From Acidobacteriota bacterium (GTDB lineage: Bacteria; Acidobacteriota; UBA6911; RPQK01; JAJDTT01), in contig OZ253580.1 in the NCBI GenBank assembly GCA_965263035.1, positions 5,120,001 to 5,184,000 of the forward strand: a stretch of DNA of 64,000 nt, read 5' to 3'. Both the position numbers and the translations under genes were made by a program. The notes under the pieces were generated by a model. The model had not been told where the DNA came from and did no database searches. It saw nothing but the letters and a program-made list of their open reading frames with translations. Positions 58,634 through 64,000 of the stretch are shown here, piece by piece (positions within the stretch are counted from its first letter, which is position 1; each line of letters opens with the position of its first letter).

Positions 58634-58936
58634 CTACCTGAGAACGGTGTCAAGAGGTTGAATATGCGAGACATCGATCATTGCGCCTGCCTGGGCAAGA
58701 TCGTAGCTCATCTGCATATTCATCCAGTAATGCGGCGTTGTCTTGAAGGCTTTCGCCAGTCGGAATGCAGTATCCGGTGTTACCGACGTCTGGCATTTTA
58801 CGATGCGTTCTATACGCGTTCGTGGCACGCCCAATTTCTTTGCCAAGGCCCCGGCGCTCATCTCGAGCGGCTTAAGGTACAGCTCGTCCAAGACTTCACC
58901 AGGATGCATCGCTACAAGGATATCAGCCATTTCCAT
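58634..58936 (-). CDS. higA: HigA-family antitoxin (no adjacent cognate toxin)
   Basis: HPGEVL.E.YL.PL, LA..LGV.RTRI, TA.RLAKAF.TT..YWMN.Q. Confidence 0.85.
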   Translation of the reverse strand: MEMADILVAMHPGEVLDELYLKPLEMSAGALAKKLGVPRTRIERIVKCQTSVTPDTAFRLAKAFKTTPHYWMNMQMSYDLAQAGAMIDVSHIQPLDTVLR

Positions 58937-59000
58937 CGGTCCTCATGAGGAGAAGGGGACAGTCACCTTCTCTCTTATGCCCCCTGCTCTGCTGGAGCGG

Positions 59001-59345
59001 CTATGCTTCAACGCCGAGCCGTCCGGGTCGCTCCGAGTGCGACTCGCGAATAACGATGTGTACATCGCGCCCCAGAGCCGTCAGGAGGCGCAGAAGCCGT
59101 TCCATGGAGTACTCTCGGAAGCTGCCCCGCAGCAGGCGCGACACATCGGGTTGAGACAGCCCGAGCAGCTTTGCTGCGTCGACCTGCTTGAGGCGGCGCT
59201 CTCGAATGATCTTGTCGATCTGCGTGACCAGCTTGGCCTTGAGCAGATGCGCGTCGGCATTCGGGAGTCCCAGGTCAGCGAATATGTTTCCGCTGCCGCG
59301 TTCAATCTTCACGTTGTCGGTCTTCATCGTTTTACCCTCTGCCAA
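59001..59345 (-). CDS. XRE/HTH antitoxin
   Basis: GSGNIFADLG, Q..AA.LLGL.QP.VS.L.RG, LG.DV.I. Confidence 0.85.
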   Translation of the reverse strand: MAEGKTMKTDNVKIERGSGNIFADLGLPNADAHLLKAKLVTQIDKIIRERRLKQVDAAKLLGLSQPDVSRLLRGSFREYSMERLLRLLTALGRDVHIVIRESHSERPGRLGVEA

Positions 59346-59700
59346 AGTTCTCGCGGTAGTGTTGCTCCGCCGCTTTCAGCCTCCGCCTGATCAGGTCGAT
59401 CTCCGGCTTCGGAGTCGCGATGCCCTGCTTGGCCTTCTTCTGGAAGGCATGTAGCACGTAGACGGCGGACCTGAACCGGACCGTATACACGGCCCGAAAG
59501 GCGTCGCCATCATGACGCGAGACCACTTCCAGGACGTTGCTGCCCAAGCCTCTGAGCGGCTTGACGTCCCGGTGTCTGAGACCAACCTGAGCTTGATAGA
59601 GCGCATAGCCGACTACGCGTCGCACGGACTCCGGAAACGTCTTCAGGTCCGCCTTGCTGGAGCCAATCCATTCAACAGGTCTCGGCAGGTCCGCGGCCAT
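59332..59700 (-). CDS. RelE/ParE (Gp49-like) toxin
   Basis: W.GSSK.DL..FP, GY.L...Q.G, FRAVY, YVLHAFQKK. Confidence 0.9.
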   Translation of the reverse strand: MAADLPRPVEWIGSSKADLKTFPESVRRVVGYALYQAQVGLRHRDVKPLRGLGSNVLEVVSRHDGDAFRAVYTVRFRSAVYVLHAFQKKAKQGIATPKPEIDLIRRRLKAAEQHYRENFGRG

Positions 59701-60075
59701 GTCCTATTATGGTGGTTCCGCCATATCCACGCAACCTGATTCTTGACATGCAGGCCTGCCAGTGGTTCCTGTTGTTGCTCGAGCGGAACGCGCCAAACCC
59801 TCCCGACATCTGCTCCCACGCGCCGGCAATTGACCGCTGAAGACCATCGAGGGGTTGGCCCAAGCGGAGACCGGCGCCTGGACCTAAACCTATTTCGACG
59901 CAGCGTTCCTCACCCAGATCGAGCGACAGGTCCTGTAGGCGGACCTTGCCGGCGAGATCACCGCGTTCGTTTTCAAGGACGACAGGGAAGAGTTCAACGT
60001 GACGGAGAGTCGGGGAGAAGGGGATACCTACCTTCTCTCTCCTGTAATATTAAATGTACTCAAAAGAGGATTCTC

Positions 60076-60306
60076 ATGGCCCCGGTTTCACCGCGCTTGC
60101 CCGATGACTTATCTCAGCGCCTGCAACGGTTGGCCGACCTTACGGGGCGGAACAAGACCTTCTACATGATCGAGGCAATTCGGGAGCATCTGGACGACCT
60201 TGATGATTTGTATGTTGCTGAGCAACGGCTGGTCACCCTTCGATCCAGGGAGTCTCGGACCGTGCCGCTGGTCGAGGTGATGCGGCGTTATCGGTTGGAC
60301 GACTGA
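60076..60306 (+). CDS. RelB-like ribbon-helix-helix antitoxin (orphan)
   Basis: RL..LA..TGR.KTFY..EAI..HLDDL.D.Y.A; no toxin follows. Confidence 0.75.
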   Translation: MAPVSPRLPDDLSQRLQRLADLTGRNKTFYMIEAIREHLDDLDDLYVAEQRLVTLRSRESRTVPLVEVMRRYRLDD

Positions 60307-60576: not shown

Positions 60577-61163
60577 TGTCAATGGCCATTGAAAATTGCA
60601 CACATCGCGGGAGCCCCCGTGAAGGGAGCGGAGCGACCGCCACGGGGGCTCCCGCGGTCGGACCTGATCCCCTCATGCCTCCCTCCTTCCCGCTCCGGAT
60701 TCCTGTGCGCTGACCGCTCGGGCGGCGGTCGGATGGATCGCCCTGGAGAGCTCGGCGTGGCGGCGCAGCCGGTAGCTGTTGCCCCGGATGTTGACGATGT
60801 GGCAGCGGTGCAGGATGCGGTCCAGAAGCGCTGCCGCCATCACTTCGTCTCCCAGGATCTGGCCCCATTCCTCGAAGCCCTTGTTCGAGGTCAACACCGT
60901 CGAGGCCCGCTCGTAGCGCCGGTTCACCAGTTGGAAGAACAGAACCGCTCCGCTCTGGCCGACCGGAAGGTAGCCGATCTCATCCACCACCAGGAGCGCC
61001 GGATAGGTCAGGGTCTTGAGACGGTGGTTGAGCCGGCCCGCCGCCTTCGCTTCCTCCAAGGAGTCGATGAGGTCCACCAACGTCCCGTAGTAGACACGAC
61101 GGCCGCTCTCGGCCGCCGCGATCGCCAAGCTGATGGCCAGATGGGTCTTCCCCACTCCGGGCG

Positions 61164-61628
61164 AACCCACGACACAATGCTCACATTGCGACCTCCGTTA
61201 GAATCCATTACCCCTTTCACCCCTTAGCCGGACGAGACCTTGAACTGGCCGAGCCTCCTCGTCACGGCCAGTGTGGGGAGTGGTTCACCTGCCGGCTACC
61301 GGACAGTACTCACGCGAAGATCCCACGCTGGATGTGCCGGCCCGAAGCTGCGGCAGTGGGTCGGGTCGACGACCAGCCGCGATGCAGCGTCGGCGCCTTG
61401 CAAGAACTTCTGGACCTGATCGAGACGTTCGGGTCGAAGTCGGATTGTCAGACCACCCGGGGCAACGTTGCCCCCGGAGGACGGCATGAAGCAAAAGGAG
61501 TTCGCGTTTGCAACCCCCAACCAGCCCGAGTGGGACCAGCTACCCCCTTCGACCAGGAAGCAACTGCTGCGGCTGATGGCTCAGCTGCTGGAGCAGGCTT
61601 GGCGAGGGCAAAAGGAGGACGCCGATGA
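61164..61628 (+). CDS. HPFHPL/P.WM-motif accessory protein lacking its start in the integrated state
   Basis: Open frame NPRHNAH...IHYPFHPLAG...IPRWM...ALQELLDL; the in-frame ATG is at 63724, across the junction. Confidence 0.6.
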   Translation, partial: NPRHNAHIATSVRIHYPFHPLAGRDLELAEPPRHGQCGEWFTCRLPDSTHAKIPRWMCRPEAAAVGRVDDQPRCSVGALQELLDLIETFGSKSDCQTTRGNVAPGGRHEAKGVRVCNPQPARVGPATPFDQEATAAADGSAAGAGLARAKGGRR

Positions 61629-61644
61629 GAGGAAAGATCACTGA
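61486..61644 (+). CDS. 52-aa accessory peptide of the recombinase element
   Basis: RBS GGAGG; PEWDQLPPSTRKQLLRLMAQLL. Confidence 0.55.
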   Translation: MKQKEFAFATPNQPEWDQLPPSTRKQLLRLMAQLLEQAWRGQKEDADERKDH

Positions 61645-63709
61645 GGATCACCTGAGACGCCAAGCCTACGTCTACGTGCGCCAGTCGAGCCTGCGGCAGG
61701 TTCGTTACCACCAGGAGAGTGGCCGGGTGCAATACCGGCTGGCGGCCAAAGCCGAAGAACTCGGATGGAACCAAGTCGAGGTGATCGACGAGGATCAGGG
61801 GCGTTCGGGGGCCACTACGGTCGATCGGGTGGGCTTTCAACGCTTGTCCGCCGAGGTCAGCCTGGGACGGTGCGGGGCCATCTTCAGTCTGGATGCCTCT
61901 CGACTGGCTCGCAACAATGCCGACTGGTACCGATTGCTGGACCTGTGCTCGCTGACGCGGACCCTGATCGTCGACAGCGAGGCCGTGTACGATCCGCGTC
62001 TCAGCAACGACCGACTGCTTCTCGGGTTGAAGGGAACGATGAGCGAGGCAGAGTTGAGCCTGCTCCGGCAGCGTGCCCAACAGGGACTGCTCAGCAAAGC
62101 GGCTCGCGGAGAACTGTACACCTCATTGCCAGTGGGGTTCGTTCTGAACCCGAACGGATGTTTGGAGAAGGATCCGGACCGCCGGGTGCAGGAAAGCATT
62201 CAGGGGGTGTTTGCTAAATTCTCCGAGACGGGCAGTGCCCGGCAGACTCTTCTGTGGTATCGGCAGGAAGGGATCCGGTTGCCCGTGAGACGACACACCG
62301 CTTGGGGTTGGGAGACGGTGTGGAAGCGGCCCGTCTACAGCAGCGTGCTGAGGGTCTTGAAGAACCCCCTGTACGCGGGGGCCTATGCTTGGGGGCGCAC
62401 CTGGACCGAGACCTACTTGAAGGACGGTCAAGCTCGCAAACGGATTCGGTCCCGGGCCCACCCGGAACAGTGGACGGTCTGGCTCAAGGAGCATCACCCG
62501 GGCTACATCGACTGGACGAGCTTTGAAGCGAATCAACGCCTCTTGGCCGACAACGCACAGATGCGAGGCAAAATGGCGAAGGGAGCCGTTCGTTCGGGAA
62601 AGAGTTTGCTGGCGGGTCTGCTGCTGTGTGGGCACTGCGGTCGCCGGCTGCACGTGGCCTACAGTGGAGTTGGGGGACGAGTCCCCCGCTACCATTGCCG
62701 AGGGGCGCGGATCAACCACGGCGTCGCGGGTTGCATCTCGTTTGGCGGACGCAGGGTCGACCAAGCCGTGGGGCGCGAGATCGTGCGAGTGGTTTCCCCA
62801 GGCGCGATCGAGGCGGCTCTGCGAGTGCAAGAGGAAGCCACCGAGCGAGACCGGTTGAAACGAGAACTCCTGGAGCGCGAACTCGAGCAGTTGCGCTACC
62901 AGGCAAGACGGGCTGAGCGACAGTACGATGCAGTCGACCCGGAGAACCGGCTGGTAGCCTCGACGCTGGAGCGGAAGTGGAACGAAGCCCTGAACAGTGT
63001 GCGCCAAGTGCAGTCCCGTCTGGAGCAGATCGGGCAGAAGCGGTCGAGTTCGCCGGGACCGCAGCGAGTGGAACTGCTCCGGCTAGCCGAGCGGTTTCCA
63101 GCGCTCTGGTCCGATGCCGTCACCGACAATCGGATCAAGAAGCGGATCGCACGCACGTTGATTGAAGAGATCATTGCGAGCGTGGATCAGGGTAGGCGGG
63201 AGGTGGAGTTGATCATCCGCTGGCGCGGGGGCAAACACACGCGGCTGCAGGTACGAAAGAACGCCACCGGTCGCCATCGCTACCGCACCGAGGAGGACGT
63301 GGTGAAGTTGGTTCGCCAGTTGGCCCGGCAGGTGAGTGACGATCAGATTGCCCGGATCCTGAACCGAATGGGCAAGAAGACGGGACGAGGGCACAGCTGG
63401 AACAAGACTCGTGTTCGCAGCTTGCGCAACTATCGGCGCATCCCAGCCTTCTCGCAACGCCCTCACGAATTCTGCAACATGCAAGAAGCGGCTTCGCAAC
63501 TGGGAATCAGCCCCAGTTCCGTACGCAAGCTGGTTGCCCGCAAACTCCTGCCAGCACGGCAGGTGGTGGCCACGGCCCCCTGGCAGATTCGGCACTCGGA
63601 CTTGGGATCTGAAGCAGTCCAACGAGCCGCCGAGGCCATTCGAAGCGGCAGAAGAGTTCCGCGAGGTACCAACGCGTCACAGTTAAGTCTCATGACATCA
63701 ACGATGTAG
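61625..63709 (+). CDS. Large serine recombinase with zinc ribbon, coiled coil and C-terminal HTH
   Basis: AYVYVRQSS, SRLARN, LKNPLYAGAY, LLAGLLLCGHCG...YHC, EAASQLGIS.SSVRKL. Confidence 0.95.
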   Translation: MRGKITEDHLRRQAYVYVRQSSLRQVRYHQESGRVQYRLAAKAEELGWNQVEVIDEDQGRSGATTVDRVGFQRLSAEVSLGRCGAIFSLDASRLARNNADWYRLLDLCSLTRTLIVDSEAVYDPRLSNDRLLLGLKGTMSEAELSLLRQRAQQGLLSKAARGELYTSLPVGFVLNPNGCLEKDPDRRVQESIQGVFAKFSETGSARQTLLWYRQEGIRLPVRRHTAWGWETVWKRPVYSSVLRVLKNPLYAGAYAWGRTWTETYLKDGQARKRIRSRAHPEQWTVWLKEHHPGYIDWTSFEANQRLLADNAQMRGKMAKGAVRSGKSLLAGLLLCGHCGRRLHVAYSGVGGRVPRYHCRGARINHGVAGCISFGGRRVDQAVGREIVRVVSPGAIEAALRVQEEATERDRLKRELLERELEQLRYQARRAERQYDAVDPENRLVASTLERKWNEALNSVRQVQSRLEQIGQKRSSSPGPQRVELLRLAERFPALWSDAVTDNRIKKRIARTLIEEIIASVDQGRREVELIIRWRGGKHTRLQVRKNATGRHRYRTEEDVVKLVRQLARQVSDDQIARILNRMGKKTGRGHSWNKTRVRSLRNYRRIPAFSQRPHEFCNMQEAASQLGISPSSVRKLVARKLLPARQVVATAPWQIRHSDLGSEAVQRAAEAIRSGRRVPRGTNASQLSLMTSTM

Positions 63710-64000
63710 AAAGGTGGTGCAGTATGTCACCGGATCGGGCGGACCCAGGAAGACGATGTTTTCCCTTCGCTCCACGAAGCCCAGCTCGTGCAGCGAGTCG
63801 ATCTGCTCCCGTTTGATCGATGGCTGGAAGCTGAAGTCGAACTCCGCCAGCGTCTTGATCGCCGGCAGTCGGCTGGAACGCATGGCCGCCTCCAGCCGCC
63901 GGCTGTTGCGCAGGGCGATCTGGGCCGCCAGGAGCCGTTCGATGGCTTCCGAAGCGGTGGTCCCTCCGCCGTCCACCCCGGAGAGCACGCCGTCGAGGGC

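Follow-up and report, generated by a model that had tools for sequence, protein, structure and literature searches.

A cargo-free serine recombinase element in Walker A codons, with a DUF5372-like reading frame completed when its ends are joined

We analysed a stretch of 64,000 nucleotides (the window) from contig OZ253580.1 of an Acidobacteriota genome, in which an IS21-type istB gene on the minus strand is cut in two by a 2578-bp insert. We observed that this insert is a precise element carrying a large serine recombinase (LSR), that it sits within the Walker A codons of istB, and that its two ends, when joined, give an in-phase open reading frame (ORF) of 160 aa that is split in the integrated state. 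From these observations, and from the conservation of the same arrangement in relatives, we think it likely that the element is active, carries no cargo and is moved by its LSR, and that a cofactor gene is gated by the joining of its ends. The features are as follows (attL, left attachment site; attP, the attachment site formed by the joined ends).

61164..63741, plus strand: mobile element, 2578 bp including one core copy (empty-site skip, 2578 nt)
61158..61163, plus strand: attL core copy CGGGCG; probable crossover dinucleotide GG at 61159-61160 (from copy c1 against copy c2)
60673..61163, minus strand: interrupted istB, C-terminal part, from GVGKT onwards
63742..64000, minus strand: interrupted istB, N-terminal part, ending ...ENIVFLGPP; leaves the window
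61164..61628, plus strand: body of the split ORF, 154 codons and stop (PF17342, E 0.01, 16.3 bits)
63710..63741, plus strand: head of the split ORF, which is the P arm of attP; AAAGGTGG at 63710-63717, ATG at 63724-63726, codons running to the core at 63736-63741
61486..61644, plus strand: 52-aa ORF overlapping the start of the recombinase
61625..63709, plus strand: large serine recombinase, 694 aa (Pfam)

The element, its ends and its recombinase

The two parts of istB abut across the element, with ...ENIVFLGPP in the right flank meeting GVGKTHLAISL... in the left flank, so that the break lies inside the Walker A loop (GPPGVGKT). In Pfam searches the C-terminal ORF (60673-61170) covered positions 98-235 of the IstB_IS21 profile (188.1 bits), and the N-terminal ORF (63737-64000, at the window edge) covered positions 30-101 (65.8 bits). 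The interrupted gene thus encodes the helper ATPase with a Walker A motif that marks the IS21 family. The hexamer CGGGCG is present twice, at 61158-61163 (followed by aACCCA) and at 63736-63741 (followed by gACCCA). The same istB was found intact in contigs from two other public runs (X3 and X10), and the joint of this empty site runs from 61157 to 63736, with exactly 2578 nt skipped and 6 nt that fit either side. This establishes a precise element that made no target duplication, and it fixes the ends. Within the genome itself no uninterrupted copy of this istB was found. A reading made earlier from the sequence alone (the sequence-only reading) had placed the insertion at CGGGCG within the GPPGVGKT codons, and the translations, the profile halves and the empty site all agree with it.

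The recombinase has all three LSR domains of Pfam above their cut-offs and in the LSR order. An N-terminal catalytic domain (PF00239 Resolvase, residues 14-163, 69.4 bits, 4.7e-19) is followed by PF07508 Recombinase (residues 189-309, 63.5 bits, 2.3e-17) and then by a zinc ribbon (PF13408 Zn_ribbon_recom, residues 328-382, 35.9 bits, 9.5e-09); a C-terminal HTH_17 match fell below its cut-off, and DUF4368 gave no match in Pfam at E<=0.1. The exchange is also of the LSR kind, with a short identical core, no target-site duplication and an imperfectly palindromic attP. When the window copy (c1) was compared with a second copy in the genome (c2), GG was the only dinucleotide common to all four half-junctions. 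Around this GG, attP is symmetric at 13 of 19 positions by our own count.

A reading frame split by integration

The element holds three plus-strand frames: a DUF5372-like body of 154 codons, the 52-aa ORF and the 694-aa recombinase. At the right end, one base past the recombinase stop, stands the purine-rich, Shine-Dalgarno-like block AAAGGTGG, followed after 6 nt (five in the sequence-only reading, which was wrong here) by an ATG at 63724 that opens MSPDRA. A block GGTGCAGTATG recurs in the right ends of relatives. At the left end, and in the same phase as the head, the frame reads NPRHNAH... up to a TGA sharing bases with the recombinase ATG (ATGA, 61625-61628). Joined at the core, the two ends encode an in-phase protein of 160 aa. 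In the integrated state the body frame opens past a stop at 61131-61133, and its first ATG, GTG or TTG comes only at 61332 (Met-57 of the body), downstream of HYPFHPL, the most conserved motif of the body. Two earlier claims, that the junction ORF is in frame and runs into the recombinase ATG and that integration leaves its ribosome-binding site and start 2.5 kb from the body, could therefore be read directly in the DNA, where no in-frame start occurs between 61134 and 61332.

The junction protein is also present in public data. When the body alone was searched against a public protein collection of 5.8 billion clusters, there was a single match, P0002, which is 160 aa long, identical to the body and furnished with the exact head at its N-terminus; it comes from one contig of 95,240 nt. 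Since the joined DNA is not in the present assembly, another public assembly holds the joined ends.

AlphaFold predicted four strands and a C-terminal helix for the joined protein (pLDDT, the per-residue confidence, 80-95 at residues 20-100), which is the same fold as that of the canonical family. The folded domain occupies approximately residues 17-100, and the last 60 residues are predicted to be unstructured (tail pLDDT ~57-67). The fold is a generic SH3/KOW/Tudor-like barrel (Foldseek best E 0.094; VIA best Z 5.9) and gave no functional lead. The body is 27-36% identical to 30 members of the metagenome clade described below. A scan of whole genomes with the Pfam DUF5372 profile at E<=1 was uninformative, as 9 of 14 control genomes also matched.

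We also compared c1 with copies 88-92% identical to it. Up to 61485 the synonymous share was highest in the body frame (6/16, 11/25 and 13/24). From 61486 to 61624 it was the 52-aa frame that led (6/10, 6/10 and 3/8, against 3/10, 2/10 and 3/8 in the body frame), these being small numbers. This pattern, together with the unstructured tail, indicates that the domain is coding and that the tail is read-through; the tail from 61486 is probably not under selection. By its substitution pattern the 52-aa ORF appears to be a separate small gene, and small ORFs of similar pattern were seen by eye at the equivalent place in other short elements (L047, L053 and L054). NCBIfam gave no match for either of the two small ORFs.

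Copies, relatives and their targets

There are four copies of the element in this genome, all in antisense Walker A codons. Copies c1 and c2 are 100% identical over 2605 nt and lie in different, unrelated genes: c1 in PGVGKT of istB, and c2 in VLVQGPP/GTGKSHT (the slash marking the break) of an AAA_19/AAA_11 protein of the superfamily 1 (SF1) helicase type. Copy c3 is 92% identical, has a frameshifted recombinase and lies in GPSGTGKT of another istB-like gene. Copy c4, with the same 92% identity, interrupts PGVGKT in yet another istB and ends at the equivalent of window position 63088. Near position 5832870 of G000:C1 its recombinase is interrupted by foreign DNA that by eye resembles OrfA of the IS3 family (leucine zipper and helix-turn-helix, HTH), so an insertion sequence (IS) has landed inside the element. 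In a congeneric genome (G002), a copy 88% identical has the target ...FLGPP.

Recombinase homologues (E<=1e-30) were found in 10 of 61 related genomes (a count that takes in the genome of the window), and more were found in a sample of 401 genomes of the phylum. Ends were placed by using copies at different sites or by rebuilding the target gene. In all eight lineages with both ends placed (8/8), a head consisting of the purine-rich block, an ATG or GTG and 3-6 codons is in phase with a start-less DUF5372 body. The cores and targets were as follows.

G012 (8 copies): core TT; the NG.VE / KG.AE motif that closes the rve domain, in one case within a gene other than a transposase
G022: core AAGCT; IstA motif as in G012, the rve profile ending at the junction
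G050:C8: core of 9 nt; group II-type reverse transcriptase, RVT_1 split into 1-76 and 97-204
G050:C4 and C6: core TTG(TA); two different IS66 tnpB genes at (Y/A)KRLE
G028: core TTGTAC; rve transposase at WYN
G009/G010: core of 10 nt with one mismatch; CPxC zinc motif, sense orientation
G253: core GTCG; IstB LLITGPTGIGKS, a P-loop; recombinase 48% identical to c1, in another family of the phylum
G160: core CGAAGG; IS91/Y2-like gene (by eye)

The lineages differ in core, in target and in the length of the linker from the P' arm to the domain, and the linker stays open and in phase throughout. In c1, G002 and G028 the stop of the ORF shares bases with the recombinase ATG; in G009/G010 the end of the ORF adjoins the recombinase start. 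Four further loci were left uncounted, their two ends not being placeable: in G017 the contig ends before the right end, in G014 the contig lacks the left end, in G213 (L140) a stop interrupts the recombinase and no right end was identified, and in the second G253 copy (L141) it was the left end that could not be located.

In G012, six of the eight copies lie inside one repeated unit of up to 5.9 kb with at least 98.8% identity (L039-L046; oriented, L044 486-6421). This unit is an IS21-family element (rve, Mu-transpos_C_2, IstB_IS21) whose istA is interrupted by the serine recombinase element, which suggests that a disabled IS with its passenger was still copied in trans.

A one-genome-per-species scan with four canonical bodies returned at least 523 relatives. 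The best 80 loci were kept, and all of them belong to a subfamily that we refer to as the IS66-tnpB subfamily. Its element is 3.35 kb long, with the order DUF5372, a protein with HTH_28/32/29 matches, a small ORF and the recombinase. Both genes were present in 62 loci and both end blocks in 49 of these; the junction was in phase in 49/49, with GTG (26) or ATG (23) as the start codon. These 49 loci are homologous and so amount to a single deep lineage in which the arrangement has persisted; they do not count as 49 independent trials. In the 3.3-kb relatives, the additional HTH_28/HTH_32/HTH_29 protein and the small conserved ORF before the recombinase (L137 5504-6073; L044, L049, L051) were noted separately. 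Either of them could be the true excision factor of those elements.

Scanning metagenomes with the c1 recombinase yielded 401 relatives, and we kept 80 loci with 45-51% identity. A DUF5372 match upstream of the recombinase (E<0.001) was seen in 68 of 76 loci, and the Walker A pattern G....GK[ST] was rebuilt across the joined flanks in 17 of the 58 tested. With the junction set by the longest core, frame ignored, 14 of these 17 were in phase. The other three were L153 and L164, both of which had an in-phase alternative, and L213, where the start picked was a GTG inside the upstream block. The right flanks of other metagenome groups, judged by eye, enter IS66 TnpC at GRKN(W/Y)LFAGSD, TnpB in sense at KRLE, a tyrosine recombinase at HxLR, and an IS3-type gene at (F/W)YN. 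One clade (L160, L161, L165 and L193) enters the KRLE codons of IS66 tnpB in sense, and the IS66-tnpB subfamily enters antisense (by eye).

An in-phase junction has a prior of 1/3 in each independent lineage. Phase is conserved beyond chance, in 8 of 8 further lineages and in 14 of 17 metagenome relatives. The prediction that homologues would keep the frame across attP was thus borne out, also by the 49 scorable IS66-tnpB loci. The sequence-only reading had further proposed that the element may aim at P-loop sequences of other mobile elements. P-loop targeting stands for the lineage of the element itself (all four genome copies, the congener, G253 and at least 17 of 58 metagenome relatives), where the targets are anything but unrelated to Walker A, and it does not extend to sister clades, which use other motifs. 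The proposal that the targets are mobile elements fits the istB copies and does not fit c2, which lies in the SF1-helicase-like gene.

A profile search of 1.84 billion representatives gave 2960 cluster representatives of the DUF5372 family (E<=0.001), and a Rhizobium homologue scored 62.3 bits against PF17342. The DUF5372 stretch is present in 59 plasmid records, 35 of them from Rhizobium, and among the 25 matches listed it was mostly unannotated or overlapped by tnpB fragments, the gene table being incomplete. Several database proteins (P0088, P0096, P0115, P0109 and others) have a short head resembling right-end codons; should the contigs behind them contain joined ends, these would be additional assembled circles or tandems.

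A candidate recombinase cofactor and its alternatives

A complex of DUF5372 and recombinase was modelled for a pair from the canonical subfamily (36% identical to c1), using alignments of 44 recombinases and 61 DUF5372 proteins. The three runs scored 0.73, 0.74 and 0.73, against 0.00 for the highest-scoring of three controls. Of 80 solved complexes 58 attained the mark applied, as did 2 of 110 mismatched pairs; since the alignments used here were our own, these counts apply only approximately. The runs agreed in at least 69% of contacts, and the pLDDT of the partner was at least 65. On the LSR the predicted contacts fall at 333-339 (a zinc-ribbon CxxC), 389-405, 476-513 and 531-539, that is, in the zinc-ribbon domain and at the base of the insertion after it; residues 389-405 and 476-513 of the modelled homologue flank the long insertion that follows the CxxC pairs. 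On DUF5372, the predicted contacts are the HPFHPL loop and the C-terminal helix. The model, as a prediction, supports binding of DUF5372 to the recombinase at the junction of zinc ribbon and putative coiled coil. In the parts of PMC12286644 available to us, all verified directionality factors examined bind the junction between the second DNA-binding domain (DBD2) and the coiled coil despite their unrelated folds. Because the predicted contact site is the one at which those factors bind, DUF5372 would be a cofactor of the directionality type. The sequence-only reading had called the junction ORF an excision-gated directionality or targeting factor; the predicted complex fits the directionality role, at the level of a structure prediction, and is compatible with either direction of the effect.

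The mechanism that we propose starts from what the sequences show directly. The LSR recombines an imperfectly palindromic attP of ~40 bp with DNA at the antisense start of Walker A codons (hhhhGP[PTCS]G.GK[ST]), through a conservative exchange at GG that makes no target duplication. Integration severs the DUF5372-like gene past its sixth codon and leaves the ribosome-binding block, the ATG and the first codons 2.5 kb away. The protein would be made only from joined ends, in an excised circle or a head-to-tail tandem. The protein (SH3-like barrel and helix) would act as a cofactor of the recombinase, and its supply would be gated by the physical state of the element. To trigger excision, a gene would have to be present beforehand, whereas this one exists only on the excised form. 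For this reason we prefer a function during the circle phase, in which the protein would favour or lock integration, or help in target capture, and integration would then switch the cofactor off. Selection on the encoded motif would keep the target constant, so that sites would always be found, often inside mobile elements, and the element would be carried along.

Several observations weigh against this proposal. The joined ends were not recovered here: a junction 68-mer and a 24-mer had no match in the genome assembly, and no back-joint from right to left end was found in the contigs of four public runs (contigs drop rare forms). None of 20 genome loci shorter than 4400 nt (among L056-L135) showed a terminal overlap of >=10 nt, no such overlap was present among the metagenome contigs L142-L221, and no fetched locus had a contiguous ORF of head plus body (one pattern hit was spurious). 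With P0002 as query, a metagenome scan gave 146 pattern matches, none of which was confirmed, and thus yielded no origin for this protein. The match of the body to PF17342 is below the curated cut-off (16.3 against 25 bits), yet it covers profile positions 1-74 of 78. In c3 the joined frame is off by +1; the target is also one base short, and we read this counter-example as decay of the copy. The modelled complex is that of a homologous pair and not of c1 itself. A scan for sigma-70-like promoters, which may not suit this organism, found none, and a terminator scan, which did not extend to 60600-60660, also found none. Finally, an excision-promoting factor made only after excision would hinder re-integration.

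This last point bears on the alternative that we rank next, although we judge it unlikely, namely that DUF5372 is a classical directionality factor that promotes excision in trans, with a rare circle, tandem or incoming copy setting off a burst of excision. Known excision factors bind where DUF5372 is predicted to make contact (available parts of PMC12286644), and several resident copies would be at hand for action in trans, four in this genome and eight in G012. The circle making the factor would, however, itself be barred from integrating meanwhile, and the first excision would need another route.

We give a distinctly smaller chance to the explanation that the gene is not truly split, that it is translated from an internal or non-canonical start in the integrated copy, and that the in-phase head is a by-product of att-site geometry. 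By our own count, the ATG lies inside one symmetric recombinase half-site, mirrored at a fixed distance of 30 nt by AATGC (Asn-Ala, codons 11-12) in the other; att-site geometry may thus account for part of the conservation of the start, for the fixed distance and for the phase that ties the head to the first dozen codons, and this too counts against the proposal. So do the internal start candidates. In the Rhizobium sp. C104 plasmid, the NCBI pipeline PGAP has annotated a 'DUF5372 family protein' from an internal GTG onwards, and in the IS66-tnpB loci the one recurrent candidate is a single Val codon, which is GTG in 31 of 49. Many database members of the family also have other N-termini: among 25 proteins inspected these varied, with P0088 resembling head plus body, P0003 clearly flank-derived and several fitting either description, and family members with an unsplit gene may exist. 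Against this explanation, the same Val codon is GTA, GTC or GTT in 18 of 49 loci, the 18-codon linker has no in-frame ATG, GTG or TTG in 14 of 49, and the window copy has no such codon until past the conserved motif, so that a conserved internal start, which would have spoken against the split gene, is not seen in the homologues. The purine-rich block stands where the symmetry of the site runs out, or past that point, and the plasmid stretches remain mostly without annotation among the matches listed. The phase signal that appears independent of att-site geometry is the linker beyond codon ~12, as its length varies between lineages and openness and phase are nevertheless kept.

Junction-dependent expression of a recombinase is known in other circle-forming elements, and the joined ORF might accordingly be an upstream cistron only, coupling recombinase translation to the circle through TGA/ATG (overlapping or adjoining in the lineages given above) and so raising the supply of recombinase for integration, while its protein has no role, but we regard this as very improbable in view of the 3.3-kb subfamilies, in which the ORF ends ~700-900 nt before the recombinase with the HTH gene between, of the 2960 cluster representatives of the domain family, and of the confident fold and predicted specific interface.

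Comparison with known systems and significance

The closest systems are transposons of the TnpX/TndX type (Tn4451, Tn5397), which are likewise moved by an LSR alone, form an excised circle and have a short identical core without target duplication. The joint of the Tn4451 circle creates an expression signal for the recombinase. In the available parts of Durrant et al. (PMC10083194), TnpX/TndX-like LSRs form a 'multi-targeting' clade, 63% of which have DUF4368. The window recombinase, in contrast, has no DUF4368 match, its element is cargo-free and 2.6 kb long, the target is a defined coding motif and not a loose AT-rich site, and the joint assembles the ORF of a second protein and not a promoter.

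Serine integrases of phages and integrative and conjugative elements, with their factors (Bxb1 gp47, phiC31 gp3, SPbeta SprB), share the domain order and a small family-specific accessory protein, here predicted at the DBD2/coiled-coil junction. The genes of their factors, however, are intact when integrated and are induced for excision, whereas here integration decapitates the gene. In circle-forming DDE insertion sequences (IS911, IS30, IS2, IS21), and also in IS110/IS1111, abutted ends similarly create an expression signal that integration destroys; as far as the portions of the sources at hand describe them, the chemistry there is DDE or DEDD, and a promoter is assembled and not a reading frame. 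An attP inside a gene is known from the integration-dependent immunity of mycobacteriophages and from Mx8 int, where integration changes the product. Those systems rely on tyrosine integrases, and a repressor or integrase gene is shortened at its 3' end, whereas the cofactor gene here loses its 5' end and start signals. Group I introns, inteins and homing endonuclease genes aim at DNA for indispensable protein motifs, and the target logic is alike; here there is no splicing that restores the host gene, and the route is site-specific recombination.

Elements of the IS607 family are also small and have a serine recombinase. Their transposases are small and have an N-terminal DNA-binding domain (available parts of PMC4058570), whereas the window recombinase has its catalytic domain at the N-terminus, followed by the Recombinase domain and zinc ribbon. 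Membership of the IS607 family was ruled out by the length of 694 aa and by a domain order in which the catalytic domain (residues 14-163) precedes the DNA-binding domains.

LSR chemistry, LSR transposons of the TnpX/TndX type, and joined ends that create an expression signal or place attP inside a gene are thus already known. The literature searched held no description of DUF5372 or of such elements, and neither Walker motifs nor DUF5372 appear in the available main text of PMC10083194, whose supplementary target-gene tables, outside the scope of the search, may bear on novelty. Within the searchable literature, what is apparently new is a widespread group of cargo-free LSR elements that aim at the codons of indispensable motifs, mostly those of mobile elements, and that have a cofactor ORF assembled on excision.

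Two observations were made in the neighbourhood of the element. Just beyond the istB stop lies a perfect G+C-rich hairpin with arms of ~16 nt (60600-60660, by eye), which may be an end structure of the IS21 element or a terminator. A run of small ORFs at 58634-60306 (for example 58634-58936, 59001-59345, 59332-59700 and 60077-60306) resembles toxin-antitoxin or HTH/ribbon-helix-helix pairs, judged from the translations only.

The loci number in the hundreds, with record titles from Acidobacteriota, Planctomycetota, Myxococcota, Alpha- and Betaproteobacteria, Gemmatimonadales, Binatia and Actinomycetes. We put forward, more tentatively and at somewhat less than even confidence, that elements with DUF5372 and an LSR form a large undescribed superfamily of 'motif-homing' hyperparasites, which disable and then ride their host elements and share an excision-assembled directionality switch. 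If this is true, the att site of each clade would match an indispensable motif of other mobile elements: Walker A of IstB, the catalytic-Glu motif and (W/F)YN of rve, KRLE of TnpB, GRKNWLFAGS of TnpC, FFD of the group II intron reverse transcriptase, and HxLR of tyrosine recombinases. The elements inactivate IS21, IS66, IS3-like, IS91-like and group II intron genes, a form of parasitism among mobile elements. Annotation pipelines overlook the DUF5372 gene or place its start codon at an internal Val.

LSRs are prized tools of genome engineering, and their one-way action is set by poorly understood and unrelated accessory proteins. The family would be a natural source of recombinases whose targets are short, well defined and placed in highly conserved coding motifs, and would give a testable function for a domain of unknown function with thousands of members. 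It would also exemplify a principle of control in which the topology of the element's DNA decides whether the gene for the cofactor exists.

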